Origin: a virus
Taxonomy: Duplodnaviria; Heunggongvirae; Uroviricota; Caudoviricetes
Virus record (IMG/VR): IMGVR_UViG_2778261252_000011
Strand: one strand, 5' to 3'
DNA length: 42,392 nucleotides
Each line of letters opens with the position of its first letter. Within the stretch, counting starts at the first letter, position 1. Made by a program: the position numbers and the translations under genes. This document shows positions 9,980 through 25,335 of the stretch, one piece after another. The notes below the pieces were generated by a model. The model did not search any database. It was not told the DNA's origin and was given only the letters and a program-made list of their open reading frames with translations.

Positions 9980-10726
9980 ATGAAAAATATTGCGACAGGC
10001 GGCGTTCTGGAACGTATCCGCAGACTGGCCCCGCCACATGTAACCGCGCCATTCAGGACGGTGGCGGAGTGGCGCGAGTGGCAACTTGCAGAAGGCCAGA
10101 AACGTTGTGAGGAGATCAACCGTCAGAATCGTCAGTTGCGGGTGGAAAAAATCCTGAATCGCTCCGGCATCCAGCCGTTGCACCGCAAATGCTCGTTTGC
10201 GAATTACCAGGTGCAGAACGACGGCCAGCGATACGCGTTGAGTCAGGCGAAATCCATCGCTGATGAACTGACGACCGGGTGTACAAATTTTGCGTTCAGC
10301 GGAAAACCTGGTACCGGGAAGAACCACTTAGCGGCAGCTATCGGGAATCGCCTGCTGAAAGACGGTCAGACAGTGATTGTGGTTACCGTGGCTGATGTTA
10401 TGAGTGCCCTGCACGCCAGCTATGACGACGGGCAGTCAGGCGAAAAATTTTTGCGGGAACTGTGCGAAGTGGATCTGCTGGTTCTTGATGAAATTGGCAT
10501 TCAGCGCGAGACGAAAAACGAGCAGGTGGTACTGCACCAGATTGTTGATCGCCGGACAGCTTCGATGCGCAGCGTGGGGATGCTGACAAACCTGAACTAT
10601 GAGGCCATGAAAACATTGCTCGGCGAGCGGATTATGGATCGCATGACCATGAACGGCGGGCGATGGGTGAATTTTAACTGGGAGAGCTGGCGTCCAAATG
10701 TCGTCCAGCCAGGAATTGCGAAGTAA
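9980..10726 (+). CDS. ydaV: YdaV DnaC-like helicase loader (248 aa, AAA+ ATPase)
   Basis: Walker [16 protein letters not shown] and Walker B LLVLDEIG; position after the initiator gene. Confidence 0.85.
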
Positions 10727-10748
10727 TTTTTACCGGGAGAAAAATTTA

Positions 10749-11510
10749 ATGGAGACTGTTTTTGACGCACTGAAAGCAATGGGAAAAGCCACATCCATAG
10801 AACTTGCTGCTCGACTTGATATCAGTCGTGAAGAAGTGCTGAACGAACTATGGGAACTGAAAAAGGCTGGTTGTGTTGATAAAAGCGCGTACACCTGGCG
10901 TGTGGCTGATAACAACGTTCAGCAGGAACAGCCAGCGCAGGTAGAACTGCTGGAAGAAACCACCACAGCAACAGTAGCGAAAATCTCAGAGTGCGATTTA
11001 ACCGCGACGATTGAACAACGCGGACCACAAACGGCTGATGAGCTGGCTACATTGTTTGGTACCACATCACGCAAAGTGGCTTCAACGCTGGCAATGGCAA
11101 TCAGCAAAGGTCGTCTGATTCGCGTAAATCAGGGCGGTAAATTTCGTTACTGCATACCGGGCGATAATTTACCAGCAGAGCCGAAAGCAGCATCGGTAGC
11201 GGAAACTGATGGTAAGGCCTTTCCTCAGACCGCAGGTGTTGCGTTACCAGTACAGGAGGCTGCAACACAGGAAGATATTAAAACAGAAACTGTGGCGGAC
11301 ATTGTGCAGTCGCTGCCATCGTTTACTGAAACGCGAGCGGATGACCTGGTTTTACCATCACTGCATATGGCAAACCGCGAACTGCGTCGGGCGAAAAATC
11401 ATGTCCAGAAGTGGGAGTGTGTCTGCGCCGCGCTGCGTGAGTTGAACAAGCACAGGGATATTGTACGACAGATTACTGATTCTTCCCGCCATGTTGCATC
11501 GGAAAAGTGA
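10749..11510 (+). CDS. ydaW: YdaW-like protein, apparently full length (about 253 aa); winged-helix-like N-terminus
   Basis: Start chosen at METVFDALK (ATG 10749), clear of the ydaV stop; an alternative upstream ATG at 10698 overlaps ydaV. Confidence 0.6.
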
Positions 11511-11525
11511 TTGCCGGAGGCACCT

Positions 11526-11948
11526 ATGGCAAAAGTATTTACACCAGAAGAGCGGGAAAAAATTAAAGGGCAGGTTGTTGAACTTGTACGTCTGAGCGGT
11601 CGCGAGACGTTACGGCAACTGGAAGCCAAGACAGGTGCGACAAGATATCTGATGAGTGTTCTCGCCAGTGAGCTGGTTGCCAGTGGCGATGTATACAACT
11701 CTGGTTACGGGTTATTCCCGTCTGAACAGGCGCGTAAAGACTGGCAAAACGCCCGCAAAAAACTATCGAGGGCAAAGGTGAAGAAACCTGCTGTAGTTGA
11801 TCCGGACCTTATCTGGTCATTACCAGACGGAGAAATACGCCGCTATGACAGGCGTCTGAATATAATCTGTCGCGAGTGCCGGAAGAGCGAAGTCATGCAG
11901 CGTGTACTGGCGTTCTATCAGGGTAATTTTCAGGATGTGCTGTTGTGA
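11526..11948 (+). CDS. Hypothetical protein (140 aa), winged-helix-like N-terminus
   Basis: ORF with GGAGG 7 nt upstream of ATG 11526; not present in my recollection of K-12 Rac. Confidence 0.5.
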   Translation: MAKVFTPEEREKIKGQVVELVRLSGRETLRQLEAKTGATRYLMSVLASELVASGDVYNSGYGLFPSEQARKDWQNARKKLSRAKVKKPAVVDPDLIWSLPDGEIRRYDRRLNIICRECRKSEVMQRVLAFYQGNFQDVLL

Positions 11949-12110
11949 GCCAAATTAACAATCAGGGAACTGCGTGAACTGAAAGAGAAATCATAATCCA
12001 AATCTGAATAATTAAATTTAGCACTGTAAATAAAATTTAATCCTTAACCGGAGGGGGGGGGCTGCACCCTCAAAATATTAGGAGGCGGCCCGAAAGGGCG
12101 GTAATGAAAA

Positions 12111-12614
12111 ATGACTGAATTAACCAAAAAGCAATTAATCGAAGAAGCTAAATTAAAAATAGCGATTGAGAAATGCCACCCCAATTCAGGGATGGCACGG
12201 GTAGAGGGCGAATTATTCAAAATTGCTCTGGCATCGCTGGAAGCAGAGCCAGTTGGTGATTTTTATGAATACAAACCGGATGACTGGTATCAGCGTTCGG
12301 CTGGAGATAAAGCGCCAAAATGGACGCCACCCTATGCCGTTTTTCCAGCGCCCGTAGTGCCGGAAGAAATGGATTTGCTTACATGCCATCTCGATGGTGT
12401 AACTGAAACATATGCTGAGGGATGGAACGCTTGCCGCGCTGCCCTGCTTCAGGGCAAAGGGGAGCCCGGGAAACAAGTTCGCGAATTGACAATGCTGGTT
12501 AAACAATTGGTTAGTCAACTGAAGAAAGCGAAACCGGGCTGCAAATTGCCGGATAAAGTGATGGACTACCTGGAGCGAAGCGGACTTATAAGCGTGGAGG
12601 ATGTTTTACGATGA
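12111..12614 (+). CDS. Hypothetical protein (167 aa)
   Basis: ORF MTELTKKQLIEEAKLK...; preceded by a G9 tract and a small GAAA hairpin; no family recognised. Confidence 0.55.
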   Translation: MTELTKKQLIEEAKLKIAIEKCHPNSGMARVEGELFKIALASLEAEPVGDFYEYKPDDWYQRSAGDKAPKWTPPYAVFPAPVVPEEMDLLTCHLDGVTETYAEGWNACRAALLQGKGEPGKQVRELTMLVKQLVSQLKKAKPGCKLPDKVMDYLERSGLISVEDVLR

Positions 12615-12694
12615 CCTGGCCTGAAGCATTCACAACGGTAGGAATTGCGATGGCGGTGGCGCTGGTGGTGTATTCGATTTGCCGCTGGGGTTGA
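12611..12694 (+). CDS. Putative 27-aa hydrophobic micropeptide, translationally coupled (ATGA overlap) to the upstream gene
   Basis: Hand translation MTWPEAFTTVGIAMAVALVVYSICRWG; single predicted transmembrane helix; followed by a terminator hairpin. Confidence 0.3.
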   Translation: MTWPEAFTTVGIAMAVALVVYSICRWG

Positions 12695-12704
12695 TAATAC
12701 TAAA

Positions 12705-12728
12705 TAACCAGCCCTTATGGGGCTGGCT
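12705..12728. terminator. Bidirectional terminator-like hairpin between convergent genes
   Basis: Stem CCAGCCC / GGGCTGG with a 5-nt loop; T-rich flank on the minus strand. Confidence 0.45.
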
Positions 12729-12734
12729 AATCAT

Positions 12735-13508
12735 TTAGAACTGTTCATTGCCATCGAGGTTAGGTAGCATAATTTTTTCAATCAAGGCGAGAGCCTTTTT
12801 GTCCCGGTCAGCGAAGTATTTCGGGGCATATTGCGGCAACCAAATATTGTTAAAATGTTCTTTGAAATCTGCTAAATATTCATTTGGGTACAGCCTTGCA
12901 GGGTATACGCGACCATCGGGATATTCATGGTCATAGGTAGGGAATGTTTTGGGTTCTACGTTTCTATTATCTCTTAACCATTGTGAAAATACTCTTCCTT
13001 GTGAAATGTCAGGAACCATTTTTTCTGGGAGTGTGTACCCTGCTTGTTCAAGAGGTGCAACCAAGTTGAATGTCAGTTCATTAAGAATAGAAAAGTGCGT
13101 GTGAGGAATTCTACTACGATTAACCATGTACCGTTTTAAATGTACAGGCATTTCTGCTGTAGTTCTTTCCCCTGACATCCATTCACGAACCCATCTTGAA
13201 ACCTGGACTGCAAATTTGGGCGATAGCCACTGCGCTAGATTAATAGCGATGTCAGGATGCACCCATGTCCCTTGGTTTTCAGGTCTTCCACCTTTAAATG
13301 ATTGAATTAACTCCGATATGGGAATTCCCATATCGCGTGATAATTCGTCAAAAAACTCTTGAGTAGTTTTGAGTCTAGTGTAATCAGAGAGCAGTTTGCC
13401 CGCAGTTCTACACATTGATGTGGCGTTTATGTAACCATCTTTGGCACGTAAATGTATTATTTCGCCGTCAATTTCACGAGAAATCAAAGATAATTGAAAG
13501 GATGTCAT
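12735..13508 (-). CDS. KilA-N domain protein (257 aa), opposite-strand moron
   Basis: N-terminal segment IHLRAKDGYINATSMCRTAGK... reads as a KilA-N/APSES-type domain; GAGGAA Shine-Dalgarno; transcribed against the flanking operons. Confidence 0.75.
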   Translation of the reverse strand: MTSFQLSLISREIDGEIIHLRAKDGYINATSMCRTAGKLLSDYTRLKTTQEFFDELSRDMGIPISELIQSFKGGRPENQGTWVHPDIAINLAQWLSPKFAVQVSRWVREWMSGERTTAEMPVHLKRYMVNRSRIPHTHFSILNELTFNLVAPLEQAGYTLPEKMVPDISQGRVFSQWLRDNRNVEPKTFPTYDHEYPDGRVYPARLYPNEYLADFKEHFNNIWLPQYAPKYFADRDKKALALIEKIMLPNLDGNEQF

Positions 13509-13827
13509 TGAAAATTCCTCAAGTTGGAGAGTTCTGGAACATTAAGGCGAGGTGGCAGTAATGCACCATCTGTAATCTTTTGATACTGACGTAATCGGGC
13601 CTGATGTGCAACGCCTTGCAAGTATGTAACTCATTGAAAACGATCATTTTTATCTATTGACATCAAATGGCAAACTGTCATTGTGCGGCTATGGCAAGTG
13701 GCAAATGCTTATAAATCATATGGATATAAATGGTACAGAAAGAGTTGTTTTCTCTAGGATATGAGTATACGCCCAATGCTGATTGGTTGAATTTTGTTCT
13801 TGTTTTAAAGGGTAAGAGTTTAAAGTG

Positions 13828-13856
13828 TTGGCAGTGATGTATTGGATAGTTAGAAT
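13828..13856 (+). promoter_or_regulatory. Sigma70-like promoter for the hok-like mRNA (-35 TTGGCA, 17-bp spacer, -10 TAGAAT)
   Basis: Hexamers read directly; predicted start falls at GGTGCTTGAGGCTATCTGCCTC, which resembles the hok mRNA 5' end as I recall it. Confidence 0.45.
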
Positions 13857-14030
13857 TGCTGTGGGTGCTTGAGGCTATCTGCCTCGGGCATGAACACCAA
13901 AGGTAGATAGAGAAAAGCCCCAGTTAACATTACGCGTCCTGCAAGACGTTTAACATTAATCTGAGGCCATATCTATGCGACACATAGAGATTAGCCTCTT
14001 ACGGACCGAAAGGTCAAGGAGAAGCAGGCT

Positions 14031-14156
14031 ATGAAGCAGCAAAAGGCGATGTTAATCGCCCTGATCGTCATCTGTTTAACCGTCATAGTGACGGCACTGG
14101 TAACGAGGAAATACCTCTGCGAGGTACGAATCCGAACTGGCAGACGGAGGCTCTGA
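14031..14156 (+). CDS. Hok/Gef-family type I toxin, C-terminally truncated or divergent (41 aa); possible frameshifted allele
   Basis: Translation MKQQKAMLIALIVICLTVIVTALVTRKYLCEVRIRTGRRRL; the family-typical C-terminal segment is absent; a 19-codon mok-like upstream ORF (13975-14034) overlaps the start. Confidence 0.6.
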   Translation: MKQQKAMLIALIVICLTVIVTALVTRKYLCEVRIRTGRRRL

Positions 14157-14238
14157 TTCGTAGACTACTAATCTGAGTAAAAGACCCAGCGGGGAAAGAA
14201 CCACGCCGGGACTAGTTAATAAGATATTTATAGCGTGG

Positions 14239-14580
14239 CTATTCTTTTTTTGCGGTATAGACTTTTTCGCCTGAGAAGTCTGGAGCTACCCAAAAGTTAA
14301 TATTAAACTGAGCATCATCGCTTAGTTCAACACGGTGCCAGTATTGTGGTGGGCTTGTTGCAAAAGCGCCAGCATTAATGACTACTTTTATCTCCGGTTC
14401 AGTAGCATTCTCATCAGCAAAACCATAATATGTTACAGTACCTTCCATCACGCATAACTGTCCAAAAACACCTGCTGCTGTATTATGATGTGTTAATAAC
14501 GCTGAAGGTACGTTCTCTTTTGTGAAGAACGGAGTTGAGCGTTTGATTACCCAGTCTTTAGGAATTCTCTTGTGTGTCAT
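14239..14580 (-). CDS. YeaR-like DUF1971 protein (113 aa)
   Basis: Translation MTHKRIPKDWVIKRSTPFFTKENVPSALL... resembles E. coli YeaR as I recall it; GGAGGTGG Shine-Dalgarno upstream of ATG 14580. Confidence 0.65.
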   Translation of the reverse strand: MTHKRIPKDWVIKRSTPFFTKENVPSALLTHHNTAAGVFGQLCVMEGTVTYYGFADENATEPEIKVVINAGAFATSPPQYWHRVELSDDAQFNINFWVAPDFSGEKVYTAKKE

Positions 14581-15447
14581 AACCACCTCCCATAAAACAT
14601 GCATTATAAATGCACCCTTTTGAGGGTTATGTCAAACTGTTATGAAACACATAATTGATATGTTGATTAGAGGAGAAGATAGAATCAATATGGTTGTTTT
14701 TCGTATAACTATTTGTTTTACTTTTAGTTTGTGCATTCTGTGTGTTAGGAATAACTTATTAAAGTTTAACTAAAAAATCTCGATATAGTCCGCATAGATT
14801 ACTGTTACTGAATCTTATTGTGTGCATTAGTTGTGTTCTGAAATTTCAATTTAATTACTTATGATATATTTTTAACGATAAATGTTTTCCGGGTGAAAGA
14901 CAGTGGGGGATGAGATAAGCAATATATCATTAATCTTGATTATTTCCAGGATGCCTTTACTGTGCATATAAATAAATCATATACGCATCAAATAATGTAA
15001 AGGCATCCTTTTAGATATATCTTATCAAATGTTAATGATTTGAGTGGGAAACATGATTCCAGAAACTAATCATGCGGCTACTTTATAAAAATAATGCCCA
15101 TATAAAACAGCCAGCGAAAAGGATTACGGATAAAAAAGGAGCGAGATGTGCATAGTTGTTATTTTCCATGTTTAACCACCTTAAATAATTGATGATGACG
15201 GGATGTGCATCTGTAATGCTTTTGTTGAAATGTTATGATAAAAAAGAACTTTTTCATAACATTAAAATGTAATTTATCTAATCGTTTTTAATAATAAGTG
15301 TTGTATTTCTATCCTTGTATCAGCTATTTGATATGTAGTGTTTGTTCATGTTATGTGGAGCTTTACACCATAGCCAGTTTATTTATACTTTATTCGTCAG
15401 CCTGAACAACTGGCATCTGCTGCACTGCGCCATCGAGAGATTGAGAA

Positions 15448-17241: not shown

Positions 17242-17317
<76 letters not shown>

Positions 17318-17320
17318 TAT

Positions 17321-17395
<75 letters not shown>

Positions 17396-19316: not shown

Positions 19317-19453
19317 AATCTTAACTACAATATGATTCATTTTGATGATTGTTTCATAAGGAACAGTGAAGTAAGATCTAAGAGGAGTTAAATTTTATAC
19401 AGTATAATCATAATATTGCAGCAAGGTGGTTATAATTGAAAGAATATTTAGAT

Positions 19454-20911
19454 ATGAATACATCTCATGTAAGAGTTGTTACTCATATGTGTGGGTTCCT
19501 GGTTTGGCTCTATAGTCTTTCAATGTTGCCACCAATGGTTGTAGCATTGTTTTATAAAGAAAAAAGCCTGTTCGTTTTCTTTATAACTTTCGTTATATTT
19601 TTTTGTATTGGTGGCGGAGCGTGGTATACAACTAAGAAATCTGGCATTCAATTACGTACCCGTGATGGGTTTATTATAATTGTAATGTTTTGGATTTTGT
19701 TTTCTGTTATTAGTGCATTCCCTTTATGGATTGACTCAGAACTTAATTTAACGTTCATTGATGCTCTGTTTGAAGGGGTTTCTGGAATAACAACAACAGG
19801 AGCAACTGTAATTGATGATGTTAGTTCATTACCTCGGGCATATTTGTACTATCGGTCACAGTTAAATTTTATAGGTGGTTTAGGAGTTATTGTTCTGGCG
19901 GTTGCTGTATTGCCATTATTGGGTATTGGTGGTGCAAAGCTTTATCAGTCAGAAATGCCGGGGCCATTTAAGGATGACAAACTCACTCCCCGCCTGGCCG
20001 ATACGTCACGGACACTGTGGATAACTTATTCTTTATTAGGTATTGCTTGTATTGTCTGTTATAGACTTGCAGGAATGCCTTTGTTTGATGCTATTTGTCA
20101 CGGGATTTCCACAGTTTCGCTTGGTGGTTTCTCAACTCATAGCGAGAGTATCGGATATTTTAATAACTATTTGGTTGAGCTGGTGGCTGGTTCTTTTTCC
20201 CTGCTATCGGCTTTCAACTTCACTCTTTGGTATATTGTTATTAGCAGGAAAACGATAAAACCTTTAATCAGAGATATTGAACTTCGTTTCTTTCTGTTAA
20301 TAGCCTTAGTGGTGATCATTGTTACCTCTTTCCAGGTCTGGCATATAGGTATGTATGACTTGCATGGAAGTTTTATTCATTCGTTTTTTCTTGCCAGCTC
20401 CATGCTCACTGATAATGGTTTAGCTACGCAGGATTATGCAAGCTGGCCCACGCACACGATAGTGTTTTTGCTGTTGTCAAGTTTCTTTGGGGGATGTATA
20501 GGTTCAACTTGTGGTGGAATTAAGTCACTTCGATTTCTTATACTTTTCAAACAAAGCAAACACGAGATAAATCAGCTTTCTCATCCCAGAGCGTTGTTGA
20601 GTGTAAATGTAGGAGGGAAGATAGTTACAGATCGTGTAATGAGGTCTGTATGGAGTTTCTTTTTTCTTTATACTCTCTTCACGGTGTTTTTTATACTGGT
20701 GTTAAATGGTATGGGATATGATTTTCTTACATCATTTGCAACAGTGGCTGCATGTATTAATAATATGGGATTAGGTTTTGGGGCTACTGCATCGTCATTC
20801 GGAGTGCTTAATGACATTGCAAAATATTTAATGTGCATAGCTATGATTCTTGGTCGCCTTGAAATTTATCCTGTTATTATATTGTTTTCAGGTTTTTTTT
20901 GGCGCTCCTAA
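19454..20911 (+). CDS. trkG: TrkG potassium uptake protein (485 aa)
   Basis: Translation MNTSHVRVVTHMCGFLVWLYSL... matches TrkG; polytopic membrane protein; markedly AT-rich codon usage relative to the neighbours. Confidence 0.9.
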   Translation: MNTSHVRVVTHMCGFLVWLYSLSMLPPMVVALFYKEKSLFVFFITFVIFFCIGGGAWYTTKKSGIQLRTRDGFIIIVMFWILFSVISAFPLWIDSELNLTFIDALFEGVSGITTTGATVIDDVSSLPRAYLYYRSQLNFIGGLGVIVLAVAVLPLLGIGGAKLYQSEMPGPFKDDKLTPRLADTSRTLWITYSLLGIACIVCYRLAGMPLFDAICHGISTVSLGGFSTHSESIGYFNNYLVELVAGSFSLLSAFNFTLWYIVISRKTIKPLIRDIELRFFLLIALVVIIVTSFQVWHIGMYDLHGSFIHSFFLASSMLTDNGLATQDYASWPTHTIVFLLLSSFFGGCIGSTCGGIKSLRFLILFKQSKHEINQLSHPRALLSVNVGGKIVTDRVMRSVWSFFFLYTLFTVFFILVLNGMGYDFLTSFATVAACINNMGLGFGATASSFGVLNDIAKYLMCIAMILGRLEIYPVIILFSGFFWRS

Positions 20912-21048
20912 TATATGGCTGATTTATAATTGTGAGTTTAATATTATGTTGACTCACTCATTGATCCAATACCTAACTTTACCAGCAACACCTCCGCCCC
21001 CAGTAGCACTGGCTGCTGGGGTGCGTTTTATTCATAAAGCAAGGCTGT

Positions 21049-21843
21049 ATGAGCGAGAAATTAAAGATAGTCTATCGCCCATTACAAGAATTGTCACCGT
21101 ATGCGCACAATGCCAGGACGCACAGTACTGAGCAGGTGGCACAACTGGTAGAAAGTATTAAGCAATTCGGCTGGACTAATCCGGTGCTGATTGACGAAAA
21201 GGGCGAAATTATTGCGGGTCACGGTCGTGTTATGGCGGCTGAAATGCTCAAAATGGATTCTGTTCCGGTCATTGTTCTGTCTGGCCTGACGGATGAGCAG
21301 AAAAAGGCGTACCGCCTGGCAGATAATCGCCTGCCGATGAATGCTGGCTGGGATGAAGATCTGTTGCGGATGGAGCTGTCGGACCTAATCAATGCTGATT
21401 TTGATGTCTCCCTGACAGGCTTCATCCCGACAGAAATTGATGAACTGTTGACGGATGTTTTGCCCGGTACAGGAAATGAGGAGGAGCCGTATACGACGAA
21501 AATTGATACGCCTGTTTATGAGCCGTCGGGCGGTAAACCGGATATCAGTGAACTGTACGACGATACGAAAACTCAGGAGCTGATCAGCCGGATACGTTCG
21601 GCGTCCCTTGATCCTGATATTGAGAAATTCCTCCTGTGTGCGGCAGAACGTCACACAGTGTTTAATTTCAGCAGAATTGCGGACTATTACGCTCATGCCC
21701 CCGCTGAAATTCAGTGCCTTTTCGAGGAGTCGGCGCTGGTGATCATTGATTATCAGCAGGCTATTGAAAATGGATTTGTCCGAATGACGCAGCGCATGGT
21801 GGAGATCATGCATGGCGGGGAGGAGGAGGAGGAATATGCGTGA
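21049..21843 (+). CDS. ParB-like nuclease domain protein (264 aa)
   Basis: N-terminal ParB/Srx-like region around IAGHGRVMAA; acidic C-terminal tail. Confidence 0.7.
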   Translation: MSEKLKIVYRPLQELSPYAHNARTHSTEQVAQLVESIKQFGWTNPVLIDEKGEIIAGHGRVMAAEMLKMDSVPVIVLSGLTDEQKKAYRLADNRLPMNAGWDEDLLRMELSDLINADFDVSLTGFIPTEIDELLTDVLPGTGNEEEPYTTKIDTPVYEPSGGKPDISELYDDTKTQELISRIRSASLDPDIEKFLLCAAERHTVFNFSRIADYYAHAPAEIQCLFEESALVIIDYQQAIENGFVRMTQRMVEIMHGGEEEEEYA

Positions 21844-22768
21844 TGATTTTTGCGCCTTTATTCTGACTCACGGGCGACCGGACAAAGTTCTGACTTACCG
21901 GACGTTGCGTCGTGCTGGCTATACCGGGAAAATTTTTATCGTTGTTGATGATGAAGATAAGACACGGCATCAGTACATGGCTGAATTTGGTGAACAGGTG
22001 CTGGTATTTTCCAAAGCCGATATTGCCAGTCGTTTTGACGAAGCCGATAATTTTGGTGATCGCCGCTCAATTTTTTACGCCCGTAATGCCTGTTTCGACC
22101 TGGCAAAACTGGTCGGGTGTAAATACTTCATTCAGCTCGATGATGATTATCACGAGTTCCAGTTTCGGGTGGATCGCAACTATGACCAGGCCTATTTCCC
22201 GATAAGGAAACTGGATGCGATCCTTTCTGAAATGCTGGCGTATTACGAATCAATACCCGCGCTTTCCATCGCTATGTCGCAGGGCGGGGATTTTCTTGGT
22301 GACAATGGCGGCCATGCTTCGTGGGTGAAACGCAAGGCAATGAACAGCTTTATCTGTTCGGTTGATCGACCGTTCTCATTCATGGGGCGCATTAACGAGG
22401 ATGTGAATACGTACACGAATCTCGGTCGCTGTGGTGAATTGTTTATGACGATCGGTGCTGTCCAGTTAGGGCAGAAACAGACGCAGAAAAACAGCGGCGG
22501 AATGACCGAGCTGTATCTGGATTCCGGAACCTACGTTAAAAGTTTTTACTCCGTCATGTATTCGCCGTCGTGCGTAAAAATCTCACTGATGGGTGCCAGC
22601 CATAAACGCATTCACCATCAGGTCACCTGGAACAACGCTGCAGTAAAAATCCTTCACGAAAAATACAGGAAGAAGACACCCTGCATATCAATGGGGGTGA
22701 CAAATGATTCCGTATTCGAAAGTCGAGTCTCTGGCAGCGTGCCGGATGACTGCACAACAAATCGCTGA
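21836..22768 (+). CDS. Hypothetical protein (311 aa) with GT-A-like features (DxD-like LDDDYHEF)
   Basis: ATGCGTGA overlap with the ParB-like stop; FILTHGRP...IFIVVDDED and QLDDDYHEF are reminiscent of GT-A glycosyltransferases; unverified. Confidence 0.45.
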   Translation: MRDDFCAFILTHGRPDKVLTYRTLRRAGYTGKIFIVVDDEDKTRHQYMAEFGEQVLVFSKADIASRFDEADNFGDRRSIFYARNACFDLAKLVGCKYFIQLDDDYHEFQFRVDRNYDQAYFPIRKLDAILSEMLAYYESIPALSIAMSQGGDFLGDNGGHASWVKRKAMNSFICSVDRPFSFMGRINEDVNTYTNLGRCGELFMTIGAVQLGQKQTQKNSGGMTELYLDSGTYVKSFYSVMYSPSCVKISLMGASHKRIHHQVTWNNAAVKILHEKYRKKTPCISMGVTNDSVFESRVSGSVPDDCTTNR

Positions 22769-22955
22769 CGTTCTGGATGTTGATCTGAACCGACTGAAAG
22801 AAAATCGGGAAGCAATGACAGATTTTTATGCGGCCATCCGTAAGGGCAGAGCGAAAGGTGAAGCCGAGTTACGAGCGGCATTGTTTAAGCTTGCCAGAAA
22901 AGGGGATGCCTTTGCTCTGCGCGAACTACTCAGGGTGGATAAAAATCAGGACTAA
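22704..22955 (+). CDS. Small HTH-like protein (83 aa; alternative start at 22746)
   Basis: ORF overlapping the 3' end of the previous gene; function unclear. Confidence 0.4.
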   Translation: MIPYSKVESLAACRMTAQQIADVLDVDLNRLKENREAMTDFYAAIRKGRAKGEAELRAALFKLARKGDAFALRELLRVDKNQD

Positions 22956-22958
22956 CTG

Positions 22959-24053
22959 ATGAGCAGACCGGACTGGGGGGCGTTGCAGCAGGAGTATATT
23001 GCTGAATACACCCGCTCCGGTATATCTCCGGTGGCATGGTGTGAAGCAAGGGGACTGAACTACGCAACAGCCCGTCGTTACATCAAAAAAACTCCGAAAA
23101 ATGCGCAGAAAGAAATGCGCAAAACTGCGCAAAAAAGTGCGCGAAAAAAAACTGCGCAGACTGCGCAAAGGCAGAACGGAAAATCTCAGAAAAAAAAGGC
23201 TGTATCCGATGCACTCCTGATTGAGGGGGACACGGAAGAAATTTCGTTCTGCCCCGATGAATTCGGTATTTCTGACCAGCAGGCAAAATTCGCCATGTTG
23301 GTTGCTCAGGGGAAAAAGCCGACAGAGGCATACCGACTGGCTGGTTATGAGGGGCAAGGTGCGACAGCTAACAGCAACGCCAGCCGTATGCTTAGAAATG
23401 CCAGGGTTTATCGTGCTATCAGCTACTTCCGCAATCAGTACCAGAAACGCTATACCGCAGACCTGGATTTACTGGTGAGCCAGTTGATGGCCATTGTCCA
23501 GGCCGACCCCAATCAGTTGGCACAATTTCGCCGTGTTAACTGCCGTTATTGCTGGGGCGAGAATCATCTCTACCAGTGGCGTGATATTGCAGAATTCGAT
23601 AAGGCTGCGGCACAGGCCTCCAGAGATGGTAAACCCGAGCCGGAATATGGAGGCCTCGGCTTTGTTGATAACGCCATACCCAATCCTGATTGCCCGAAGT
23701 GCTGCGGTGAGGGAACAGGACAGCTTTATATGGCTGATACCACACTGCTTGATGGGGATGCGCGGCAATTATATGCAGGGTCAAAGCTCGGAAAATACGG
23801 TGTTGAGATCCTGCTGGAGGATAAGGCTGCCGCCCGGCGTGAATTGTTGCGTTTGCTTTCTGCTGGCGGGGCATTATGTGCAGATAAGCGGCTACAGGAA
23901 CTGGAAATTGAACGGCGCAGAATAGAGAACCAGAAGCTGCGCAAAGAGATCGAAACGGTGGAGGATAATGAACATCCCCAGCCTGTGGCGATCAATATTA
24001 ATGTGGTTGATGCCAGATTAAGGAGTGATGAAGATGATCTCTCCGACGCTTAA
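22959..24053 (+). CDS. Terminase small subunit (364 aa)
   Basis: Segment AKFAMLVAQGKKPTEAYRLAGY typical of terminase small subunits; immediately upstream of the large subunit; contains repeated GCGCA motifs. Confidence 0.7.
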   Translation: MSRPDWGALQQEYIAEYTRSGISPVAWCEARGLNYATARRYIKKTPKNAQKEMRKTAQKSARKKTAQTAQRQNGKSQKKKAVSDALLIEGDTEEISFCPDEFGISDQQAKFAMLVAQGKKPTEAYRLAGYEGQGATANSNASRMLRNARVYRAISYFRNQYQKRYTADLDLLVSQLMAIVQADPNQLAQFRRVNCRYCWGENHLYQWRDIAEFDKAAAQASRDGKPEPEYGGLGFVDNAIPNPDCPKCCGEGTGQLYMADTTLLDGDARQLYAGSKLGKYGVEILLEDKAAARRELLRLLSAGGALCADKRLQELEIERRRIENQKLRKEIETVEDNEHPQPVAININVVDARLRSDEDDLSDA

Positions 24054-25335
24054 TGTGCCTCAGGCGCGATTTCTTTCAATGCCCCATAAATTTAAAGCCT
24101 ATATTGCTGGTTTTGGCTCGGGCAAAACATGGGTTGGGTGTGGCGGCATATGCAAGGGGATTTGGGAGCATCCAGGTATAAATCAGGGATATTTTGCGCC
24201 AACGTATCCCCAAATTCGCGATATTTTTTACCCTACAGTGGAAGAAGTTGCTGCTGACTGGGGATTGAACGTAAAAATTAATGAGGGAAATAAAGAGGTT
24301 CACTTTTATTACGGACGCCAGTATCGGGGAACCACTATCTGCAGATCGATGGAGAAGCCACAAACGATCGTCGGTTTCAAAATTGGTAATGCGCTGGTGG
24401 ATGAACTGGACATTTTGCCGAAGGAAAAAGCCAGAACGGCGTGGCGCAAGATAATTGCGCGTATGCGTTATAAGATTGATGGACTTCGCAACGGTATTGA
24501 CGTTACAACCACGCCGGAAGGATTCAAATTTGTCTACGAGCAGTTTGTTAAAGCCGTGCGTGAAAAAACAGAGCTGGCCTCACTGTATGGTCTGGTGCAG
24601 GCATCTACTTTCGATAATGAAAAGAACCTGCCAGCAGATTACATTCCTTCACTTCTTGAATCATACCCTCCAGAGCTGATTAAAGCCTATCTTCTAGGAC
24701 GGTTTACTAACCTGACAAGTGGTACTGTTTACCATCAGTTTGACCGGAAACTGAATAATTGCGAAGAAGTGGAGCAGCCAGGGGAGCCGATTTATATTGG
24801 GATGGATTTTAACGTTGGAAAGATGGCGGGAATCGTCCATGTGCTGCGTTTGGGGCTTCCATGTGCGGTAACTGAAATCATCAATGCCTACGATACGCCG
24901 GATATGATCCGCCTCATTAAAGAACGCTTCTGGCTGTATGACGGGCATGATTACCGGAAAGTGAGGGAGATTTATATTTATCCAGATGCTTCCGGAGATT
25001 CCAGAAAATCAAGTAACGCAAGTACGACGGATATAGCCCAGCTTAAGCAGGCAGGTTTTAACGTTGTGGTGAACAGCTCGAACCCGCCAGTAAAAGATCG
25101 CGTTAACTCAATGAATGCAATGTTCTGCAATGCCAATGGTGAGCGTCGCTATAAAGTTAATGTGAAGCGTTGTCCGGTATATGCCGAATCTCTGGAGCAA
25201 CAGGTCTGGGATGATAAGGGGGAGCCTGATAAAAAATCTGGCAATGATCACCCGAATGATGCCGGAGGTTATTTCATCGTTAAGCAATTCCCTATTGTCA
25301 AACCGACCGGAAGAGTCACATCACTTCGGATTTAA
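24025..25335 (+). CDS. Terminase large subunit (436 aa)
   Basis: Walker A GFGSGKT near the N-terminus; size and position. Confidence 0.85.
   Translation: MMKMISPTLNVPQARFLSMPHKFKAYIAGFGSGKTWVGCGGICKGIWEHPGINQGYFAPTYPQIRDIFYPTVEEVAADWGLNVKINEGNKEVHFYYGRQYRGTTICRSMEKPQTIVGFKIGNALVDELDILPKEKARTAWRKIIARMRYKIDGLRNGIDVTTTPEGFKFVYEQFVKAVREKTELASLYGLVQASTFDNEKNLPADYIPSLLESYPPELIKAYLLGRFTNLTSGTVYHQFDRKLNNCEEVEQPGEPIYIGMDFNVGKMAGIVHVLRLGLPCAVTEIINAYDTPDMIRLIKERFWLYDGHDYRKVREIYIYPDASGDSRKSSNASTTDIAQLKQAGFNVVVNSSNPPVKDRVNSMNAMFCNANGERRYKVNVKRCPVYAESLEQQVWDDKGEPDKKSGNDHPNDAGGYFIVKQFPIVKPTGRVTSLRI

Follow-up and report, generated by a model that had tools for sequence, protein, structure and literature searches.

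A TET-associated glycosyltransferase and its obligate partner domain in a Rac-like Escherichia coli prophage: a candidate DNA-glycosylating pair without a recognisable hydroxymethylase

Introduction

The TAGT-type (TET-associated glycosyltransferase) enzymes of phages that have a reported activity act on DNA: the T2/T6 enzyme acts on glucosyl-5-hydroxymethylcytosine (glucosyl-5hmC) (PMC13216743), and TET-associated GT-A enzymes glycosylate 5hmC (bioRxiv 2023.12.21.572611). Solitary TAGTs are found in 288 of 753 phages, with the acceptor pathway a stated open problem (PMC13216743), and about 65% of 25,000 glycosyltransferase contigs have no 5mYOX or ThyS gene nearby (bioRxiv 2023.12.21.572611). 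Here we analyze one such TAGT gene and the ParB-like gene immediately upstream of it (the 'partner' gene), which together occupy positions 21049-22768 of the viral sequence IMGVR_UViG_2778261252_000011 (Caudoviricetes; 42,392 nucleotides, 'the window'), a near-complete, intact Rac-like lambdoid Escherichia coli prophage. We find that the TAGT belongs to a clade in which the enzyme is invariably accompanied by one small C-terminal domain (CTD) of the partner protein, that this two-gene unit occurs in two distinct genomic contexts, and that it comes with no recognisable hydroxymethylase.

Several described systems bear on how such a pair might work. Guidance of modification enzymes by ParB proteins during packaging is a hypothesis of Iyer et al. 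2013 (Aravind and co-workers), in the form in which PMC8256090 cites it, and the ParB-dependent thymine dioxygenases are one experimental precedent for ParB-guided DNA modification, ParB176 being required for activity of the phage thymine dioxygenase 5mYOX176 (O'Toole et al., PNAS 2026, PMC13229309). Prophages also encode N6/N4 DNA methyltransferases that carry a fused ParB-CTPase fold (Kaljevic et al., PNAS 2025, PMC12704722; PHROG 498), and these fusions have been inferred to modify DNA or to counter defence. The T4 alpha-glucosyltransferase co-purifies with the gp45 sliding clamp, which provides a precedent for a clamp-bound DNA glycosyltransferase. Outside phages, the large cytoplasmic eukaryotic protein GREB1, which has the TAGT Pfam domain, O-GlcNAcylates a protein, ER-alpha (PMC7968844).

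Results

The downstream gene encodes a TAGT-family glycosyltransferase

The first-pass annotation of this DNA described the product of the downstream gene (21836-22768; 310 aa; plus strand, as are all features below unless stated) as GT-A-like with a DxD motif and could assign it to no family. The GT-A description is borne out, and the family can now be named. The protein matches Pfam PF20691 (TAGT) over residues 8-222 (E=5.5e-35; 121.6 bits against a cut-off of 27.5) and PHROG 842 (E=1.4e-103), and the viral predicted structures closest to it are TAGT-domain proteins. It has a GT-A fold with R...DDD...ED(Y/F) active-site motifs, of which R14, D102-104 and E188-D189 are invariant among homologues; R, DDD and ED motifs are those described for phage GT-A DNA glycosyltransferases (bioRxiv 2023.12.21.572611). 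Searches of NCBIfam and PADLOC returned no match for the glycosyltransferase, and a PDB sequence search returned no TAGT relative. In databases the protein is annotated as 'hypothetical protein' or 'GREB1-related protein'.

The enzyme shares its TAGT profile, GT-A fold, active-site motifs, solubility and phage origin with the T2/T6 beta-glucosyl-HMC-alpha-glucosyltransferase and with the TET/5mYOX-associated phage GT-A enzymes (Pyle et al. 2024). It differs in coming without an alpha-glucosyltransferase, beta-glucosyltransferase, 5mYOX, C5 methyltransferase or ThyS as acceptor source, and its identity with the TAGTs of T4-like Aeromonas phages is only ~23-26% (T2/T6 themselves lay beyond the reach of the tblastn search). 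The clade to which it belongs carries, in addition, a highly conserved C-terminal region (~216-265; GGMT.LY, GTY.KSFY, R.HH..W) and the obligate CTD partner described below; by contrast, no CTD lies near the TAGT of Aeh1, a T4-like phage of Aeromonas. In the window protein, core residues 1-288 are followed by an E. coli-specific tail of ~22 residues.

The TAGT is basic (pI ~8) and, by sequence, soluble (maximum KD19 of 1.08 vs. 2.62 in a TrkG control). We found no flippase or acyltransferase among the open reading frames (ORFs) of the window or in the annotation of its twin, a database sequence that includes a 100%-identical copy of the gene. An envelope or seroconversion glycosyltransferase of the Gtr or TarP type was rejected on these grounds, namely that there is neither a hydrophobic segment nor a flippase or acyltransferase partner.

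The partner protein joins a ParB-type domain to a conserved C-terminal domain

The partner gene (21049-21843; 264 aa; PHROG 620, E=1.7e-90) is the full-length form of K-12 'ynaK'. Its product is built of a ParB/Srx nucleotide-binding domain and a helical linker (together residues 1-140, 21049-21468) and the CTD (~105 aa; residues ~146-250, 21484-21798). Pfam ParB_N (PF02195) matches residues 23-90 with 29.3 bits against a cut-off of 26.3, and profile matches of the N-terminal domain to PDB entries are to Noc, ParB and Spo0J (8e-6 to 1e-3). Foldseek searches with the predicted structure gave matches to Noc and to CDP/CTP-bound ParB at E=1.8e-5, and also to PadC and KorB; all of the solved-structure matches (ParB, Noc, KorB, PadC, sulfiredoxin, SerK) have the nucleoside triphosphate (NTP)-binding ParB/Srx fold. 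In an alignment of 28 homologues, N21-x-R23, G57-H58-G59-R60 and D92-N93 are invariant or nearly so, and by eye we assigned them to the canonical nucleotide motifs of published descriptions (Box I, Q/N-x-R; Box II, arginine; Box III, E/D-N). Residues 1-141 resemble the N-terminus of ParB-methyltransferase fusions (phrog_498, 9e-51; PADLOC MTase_II, 1.7e-38). The N-domain and linker are thus very similar to those of the prophage-borne fusions of PMC12704722; they differ in that the present system has its catalytic module, a sugar transferase, on a polypeptide of its own, presumably linked through the CTD.

A Pfam scan of the partner found no helix-turn-helix (HTH) family, the TIGR00180 score of 38 bits fell short of the cut-off of 58, and no ParA was present among the ORFs of the window or in the annotation of the twin. 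A function in partition (ParABS) was rejected on the absence of ParA and of an HTH. The label 'ParB-like nuclease' that the first-pass annotation gave to this protein is right as to the ParB fold; as to 'nuclease', nothing pointed to such an activity, though no search for nuclease motifs was made. 'Nuclease' is a historical label; by its sequence and fold matches the domain is an NTP-binding, clamp-type ParB N-domain joined to a new CTD. No transmembrane segment was found in the partner. The protein is strongly acidic (pI 4.46), as is the CTD (pI ~4.6), which gives the CTD a charge complementary to that of the basic TAGT.

The CTD carries the conserved pattern YT.KI..P.YEP...P...L.D..K / FL..AA.RH..F.Y..IA.(F/Y)YA......Q.L.E.SALVIID...AI..G(F/Y) (alignment A7, 46 loci). 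It was recognised by its hidden Markov model (HMM) matches beside TAGT and has no family annotation: we found no relative in Pfam, NCBIfam or the PDB, and PDB sequence searches with TAGT and CTD queries gave weak and spurious matches (T4 gp54, designed armadillo repeats). Compared with other Enterobacterales, the partner gene has a dN of 0.28-0.29 with dS saturated, and for both genes of the pair dN is far below dS, indicating strong purifying selection, on which gene decay was rejected.

Residues 141-170 of the partner (21469-21558), at the junction of linker and CTD, are predicted to be disordered (pLDDT <50). Within this segment Y148, T149, K151, P155, Y157, P159 and P164 are invariant in close homologues and highly conserved across phyla. 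The segment may be a TAGT-binding peptide or an acceptor site.

The CTD is an obligate partner of the TAGT clade

Sequences of the TAGT clade are extremely conserved, with 47-60% identity among Proteobacteria, Bacteroidota, Firmicutes, Chlorobi, Planctomycetes, Spirochaetes, Actinobacteria and Saccharibacteria, and the TAGT of the haloarchaeal virus HHTV-2 is ~43% identical. To define the association with the CTD we built HMMs of both from our own alignments and scored adjacency from HMM matches on stop-to-stop reading frames, which in all covered ~120 pair loci from many bacterial phyla and one haloarchaeal virus. The CTD adjoins TAGT in 51 of 51 loci with enough flanking sequence and in 71 of 71 further viral contigs with enough flank, and also in phages c5, phage005, HHTV-2, phi jlb1 and NTR1. 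(The wider scan of viral contigs took a Lactobacillus-phage sequence first.) Six viral loci that seemed to have no CTD all have one, either in a ParB-CTD protein before two tandem TAGTs or as a CTD-only gene in the same cluster (downstream of TAGT in loci L144 and L145, between two TAGT genes in L215). We conclude that the CTD is a universal partner of the TAGT clade.

The ParB domain is common but dispensable, since CTD-only partners of ~130 aa exist. The constant presence of the CTD and the occasional absence of the ParB domain predict that the enzyme depends on the CTD and not on the nucleotide-binding domain. The CTD family as a whole comprises 1196 representative clusters, in which the domain is almost always at the very C-terminus. 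No genuine CTD-TAGT fusion was seen among the 150 best CTD clusters; one candidate (P0241; 161 aa), with a CTD match and a short N-terminal piece of TAGT, was set aside, unchecked, as a truncation or frameshift artefact.

Variants of the unit were observed in individual loci. In L111 (189-1739) a 516-aa partner has a weak S-adenosylmethionine (SAM)-methyltransferase-like domain ahead of the ParB domain and the CTD. In L168 (4679-7338), L192 (6177-8807) and L151 (6186-7843) a ParB-CTD gene is followed by two tandem TAGT paralogues, and in L168 and L192 a radical SAM enzyme follows the two TAGTs, ahead of the terminase genes; the product of such loci may be a disaccharide, a tailored sugar or an acceptor. 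In L104 (5581-8846; Virgibacillus plasmid pCBA3643-01) one operon holds genes for an NAD-dependent sugar epimerase/dehydratase and a sugar-1-phosphate nucleotidyltransferase and, immediately after these, the ParB-CTD, TAGT and terminase genes, and this element may supply its own sugar donor.

The pair occupies two genomic contexts

Partners with and without an N-terminal domain are found in different surroundings. Where the partner has a ParB or other N-domain, a gene for the terminase large subunit (TerL) lies at most 3.5 kb downstream in 76 of 83 loci (median gap 508 nt), and an adjacent DnaN is found in 0 of 83. CTD-only partners are located in replication modules; of 13 such loci, 5 have a DnaN-like clamp immediately downstream and 2 have TerL within the same distance as above. 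The differences have Fisher p values of 2.4e-8 (TerL) and 2.1e-5 (DnaN) for loci that are not phylogenetically independent, the TerL counts resting on verified TerL seeds. Other arrangements are DNA polymerase A, TAGT, CTD, DnaN in locus L144 and CTD, TAGT, helicase in Vibrio jumbo phages, and in Lactobacillus phage c5 the first two genes behind cos are those of the pair. The TerL proteins of pair-bearing phages fall into four different Pfam families, indicating that the pair is a mobile cassette. The dichotomy between ParB and DnaN predicts that the enzyme is tethered to a clamp.

Several DnaN-adjacent CTD-only partners (L112 7607, L144 6079, L179, L189, L194, L196) start with x-x-L-F (MKSLF, MRLF, MPLF, KQSELF, KTETLF), which resembles a beta-clamp-binding motif. 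L[FYW] occurs within the first 14 residues of only 4 of 13 CTD-only representatives from the large library, and we dropped the pattern as evidence of clamp binding because it is not general.

The position of the pair beside the terminase, and beside cos in phage c5, could also mean that two unrelated accessory functions share a hot spot, the partner being a ParB-like protein that works at pac or cos as a packaging helper or nuclease and the TAGT an envelope or seroconversion glycosyltransferase. HNH genes do occur near the pair in L002 and L004, and prophage GT-A enzymes such as TarP do modify the envelope (bioRxiv 2023.12.21.572611). However, CTD and TAGT occur together in every locus examined, including loci far from the terminase, an invariable co-occurrence that is not expected of independent functions; the two genes are translationally coupled (see below); TAGT lacks a membrane segment and comes with neither a flippase nor an acyltransferase; and the pair is found in viruses of Gram-negative bacteria, Gram-positive bacteria and archaea, the envelopes of which are unrelated. 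We consider a shared hot spot highly improbable.

The two genes overlap and are translationally coupled within the late operon

The reading frame of the TAGT gene is open from 21812, where there is an in-frame ATG. The real start is the ATG at 21836: MRDDF, the first residues of all TAGT homologues, align to it; the RefSeq coding sequence in the twin corresponds to 21836-22768; and a GGAGG-rich GGAGGAGGAGGAGG run at 21819-21832 lies 3 nt 5' of it, as part of a Shine-Dalgarno-like GGGGAGGAGGAGGAGGAA run (21817-21834) within the 3' end of the partner gene. Because the TAGT gene starts at 21836 and the partner ORF terminates ...GAA TAT GCG TGA at 21843, the overlap is exactly 8 nt, ATGCGTGA (21836-21843), with the TAGT start codon lying over the partner stop codon. 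In relatives the partner and glycosyltransferase genes likewise abut or overlap by a few to ~40 nt (exact values are uncertain, starts having been taken as the first start codon). The overlap is not accidental; it couples the translation of the two genes, in agreement with what had been proposed for this locus on first reading.

A strong terminator-like hairpin with a T-rich tail (20998-21031; 10-bp stem with 7 G-C pairs; sequence scan) precedes the pair, its stem-loop (20998-21021) ending 27 nt, and its T-rich tail 17 nt, before the partner start codon. This hairpin closes the trkG moron (19436-21031), which lies between Rz/Rz1 and the late genes. The GC content of trkG is 36-40% vs. ~49% in the gene pair, which in this respect matches the late genes. 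A promoter scan found no good sigma-70 site between the hairpin and 21049. With a terminator upstream and no promoter of its own, the pair is presumably transcribed from the Q-antiterminated late transcript, consistent with the earlier placement of the pair in the late operon. It also lies directly upstream of the terminase, as had been stated, only a small ORF with partial similarity to the terminase small subunit (TerS) intervening. This ORF (22746-22955; 69 aa from the RefSeq start at 22746, 83 aa from 22704) matches phrog_309 with E=8.3e-23 and is a RefSeq coding sequence in the twin; it is followed by TerS (22959-24053; 364 aa; Pfam Terminase_2, phrog_51), TerL (24025-25335; 436 aa, GTG start; Pfam Terminase_6N and 6C) and the portal gene. 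In its longer form (22704-22955) the small ORF matches only an internal part of the TerS family (positions 145-218 of 319 in phrog_309) and overlaps the ~22-residue C-terminal tail of TAGT that is found only in E. coli.

Elsewhere in the window the gene order is integrase, recT/recE, kilR, sieB, replication genes, two tRNAs, lysis genes with Rz, the trkG moron and late genes. The tRNAs, tRNA-Thr (tgt) and tRNA-Gly (tcc), are at 17242-17395, between the Q-like region and the lysis genes. On its minus strand, a moron region at 12735-14604 encodes KilA-N and DUF1971 proteins; the corresponding region (10383-13882) of prophage L001, which is otherwise very similar, has genes for a C5 DNA methyltransferase, an O-methyltransferase and an ATPase.

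The pair is widespread, and often damaged, in E. coli

Of 5426 complete E. coli genomes, 1580 contain a match to the 1720-bp stretch, which is also present in ten phage records. Only 889 of the 1580 matching genomes hold at least 80% of it, indicating that many copies are truncated or disrupted. In several complete E. coli genomes (H7-H13) the partner gene is interrupted by an IS3-family element. Strain K-12 retains only a 5' stump of the partner gene, ynaK, with which the gene name in the E. coli matches agrees. RefSeq calls the twin of the intact 264-codon partner gene a 258-nt pseudogene, 'ynaK', without the C-terminus (L001 20001-20258); this call is probably a naming artefact that derives from the truncated Rac gene of K-12.

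Discussion

The results in this work are consistent with a late-made, clamp-tethered, two-subunit DNA glycosyltransferase that marks phage DNA before packaging, a proposal to which we give an even chance. According to this proposal, the basic GT-A enzyme would transfer a sugar from a nucleotide-sugar donor, and would do so in complex with the acidic CTD of the protein encoded upstream; the ParB-type N-domain of that protein would serve as an NTP-dependent DNA clamp that has no sequence-reading HTH of its own; the clamp would keep the enzyme DNA-bound, and replicated phage DNA would thereby receive its mark ahead of, or in the course of, packaging by terminase; and the sugar mark would protect the injected DNA from restriction in the next host. 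In an alternative architecture, phage DnaN would be the clamp for the CTD-TAGT core, acting at replication. That DNA is the substrate at all is likewise a matter on which we stand midway between belief and disbelief. The role in DNA modification or anti-restriction first suggested for the pair keeps its place as the best-supported reading, owing to the TAGT family; the function itself is still inferred, and a source of hydroxymethylated base is not visible. We also counted the tandem TAGTs of some loci and the sugar-nucleotide genes of L104 in favour of a DNA glycosyltransferase.

A close parallel is with 5mYOX176 and ParB176. Both systems have an orphan phage ParB consisting of a nucleotide-binding domain and a C-terminal domain, with no HTH or other DNA-binding domain and with the substitutions reported for thymine-dioxygenase-activating ParBs (N for Q, H for E), next to a co-directional gene for an actual or putative DNA-modifying enzyme and often near the terminase. 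The differences are that the enzyme here is a glycosyltransferase rather than a dioxygenase and that the CTD-only variants show the ParB domain to be dispensable for the core pair. The parallel with the T4 alpha-glucosyltransferase and gp45 is one of gene context only, a ParB clamp being fused to the partner or a DnaN gene lying beside the pair; the T4 enzyme differs in having a GT-B fold, in acting on 5hmC that was incorporated at replication and in having no adaptor domain.

A number of observations weigh against the proposal. To our knowledge there is no precedent for GT-A glycosylation of canonical DNA bases. The reported TAGT-type enzymes require a hydroxyl, on 5hmC, 5-hydroxymethyluracil (5hmU) or a sugar, and we found no TET/5mYOX or ThyS-type gene in the window (ten early and moron ORFs searched, the rest by the annotation of the twin), none among the called neighbours of three loci, no such hydroxymethylase family among 228 neighbouring ORFs (for which 25 families of at least two members were listed, so that singletons could hide), and, in phage c5, whose 31.8-kb genome is complete, no gene annotated as TET or as of thymidylate-synthase type. 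A DNA-binding domain is lacking from the partner, which is strongly acidic, and the structural models are of low quality over TAGT residues 150-310 and over the CTD. In eukaryotes, GREB1, with its TAGT domain, has a protein as its acceptor, and NTP-site mutants of ParB176 still activated its enzyme (PMC13229309), so that clamp action is unproven even in the precedent.

One explanation for these negative results is that the pair is a conventional hydroxymethyl-base glycosyltransferase whose precursor enzyme is unrecognised or encoded elsewhere (a divergent dioxygenase or a radical SAM enzyme, for example), or whose target is foreign hydroxymethylated DNA. According to O'Toole et al., the Pfam TET_JBP annotation is missing from thousands of 5mYOX-like phage contigs, a radical SAM gene follows the two TAGTs in L168 and L192, the flanks that we examined span 6-8 kb, and aggregate Pfam tables could conceal single matches. 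Set against this, the window is approximately a whole prophage in which every ORF of at least 250 aa has an ordinary lambdoid assignment; the genome of phage c5 is complete and has no 'hypothetical protein' ORF above ~210 aa, no thymidylate-synthase homologue and no phage DNA polymerase; and what moves among unrelated phages is a two-gene cassette. No co-encoded acceptor source (5mYOX/TET with or without a C5 methyltransferase, a ThyS-type hydroxymethylase, or a first glucosyltransferase) was found in the window, in the 6-8 kb flanks of relatives or in the phage c5 genome. We regard a hidden precursor pathway as distinctly unlikely.

Since no hydroxymethylase was found, the cassette appears self-sufficient, and its acceptor must be one that is common to bacteria and archaea. 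The lack of a visible source of 5hmC or 5hmU inclines us, weakly, to a canonical DNA position over a hydroxymethylated base as the acceptor. The specific form of this idea, in which the CTD-TAGT core rides a sliding clamp (ParB-type at packaging, phage DnaN at replication) and puts sugar directly on ordinary, non-hydroxymethylated DNA, is tentative; we hold it possible, and short of likely.

The same negative results fit an acceptor that is a protein. TAGT and CTD might O-glycosylate the partner itself (at the disordered Y-T-x-K...P-x-Y-x-P segment), a packaging or virion protein, the clamp or a host protein, DNA being only the platform or uninvolved. This would accord with the O-GlcNAcylation of ER-alpha by GREB1 (PMC7968844), which has the Pfam domain in common with the window enzyme and lends its name to the 'GREB1-related' E. 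coli proteins of RefSeq and UniRef, although GREB1 has neither a ParB nor a CTD partner; with the invariant Tyr and Thr of partner residues 141-170, conserved within a segment predicted to be disordered; and with the presence of glycogenin-type self-glucosylating GT-A enzymes among the fold matches of TAGT. However, the terminases, portals and capsids of the phages that carry the pair are from unrelated families, which leaves no common virion acceptor except the partner; few proteins are common to bacterial and archaeal hosts; the phage members with a reported activity act on DNA; and DNA is also what the links to a ParB clamp, DnaN, DNA polymerase and helicase point to. A protein acceptor is, in our judgement, unlikely.

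Both protein families are already known, solitary TAGTs are a stated open question (PMC13216743), and the neighbourhood statistics of two NEB papers list ParB and terminase among glycosyltransferase neighbours. In the searchable literature we did not find the obligate CTD partner, the dichotomy between ParB/terminase and CTD-only/DnaN loci, or the absence of a hydroxymethylase from complete small genomes, and the literature on HHTV-2 and ynaK held nothing on DNA modification.

The window places an acceptor-less TAGT in a genetically tractable setting, a Rac-like prophage of many E. coli strains, and comparison supplies further handles: an obligate, unannotated small partner domain, a dichotomy between ParB and DnaN contexts, and, in phage c5, a small complete genome without an annotated hydroxymethylase candidate. 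The chemistry of the pair is possibly unprecedented and lends itself to a direct test in E. coli. With a protein as acceptor, the pair would represent a widespread viral glycosylation system. If the acceptor is canonical DNA, the pair would carry out a DNA modification of a kind not yet described, relevant to how phages evade restriction, to artefacts in the sequencing of induced prophage DNA and to enzymatic tools for DNA labelling, and about one sixth of complete E. coli genomes (889 of 5426, counting those with 80% or more of the pair) could, upon induction, give rise to glycosylated phage DNA.

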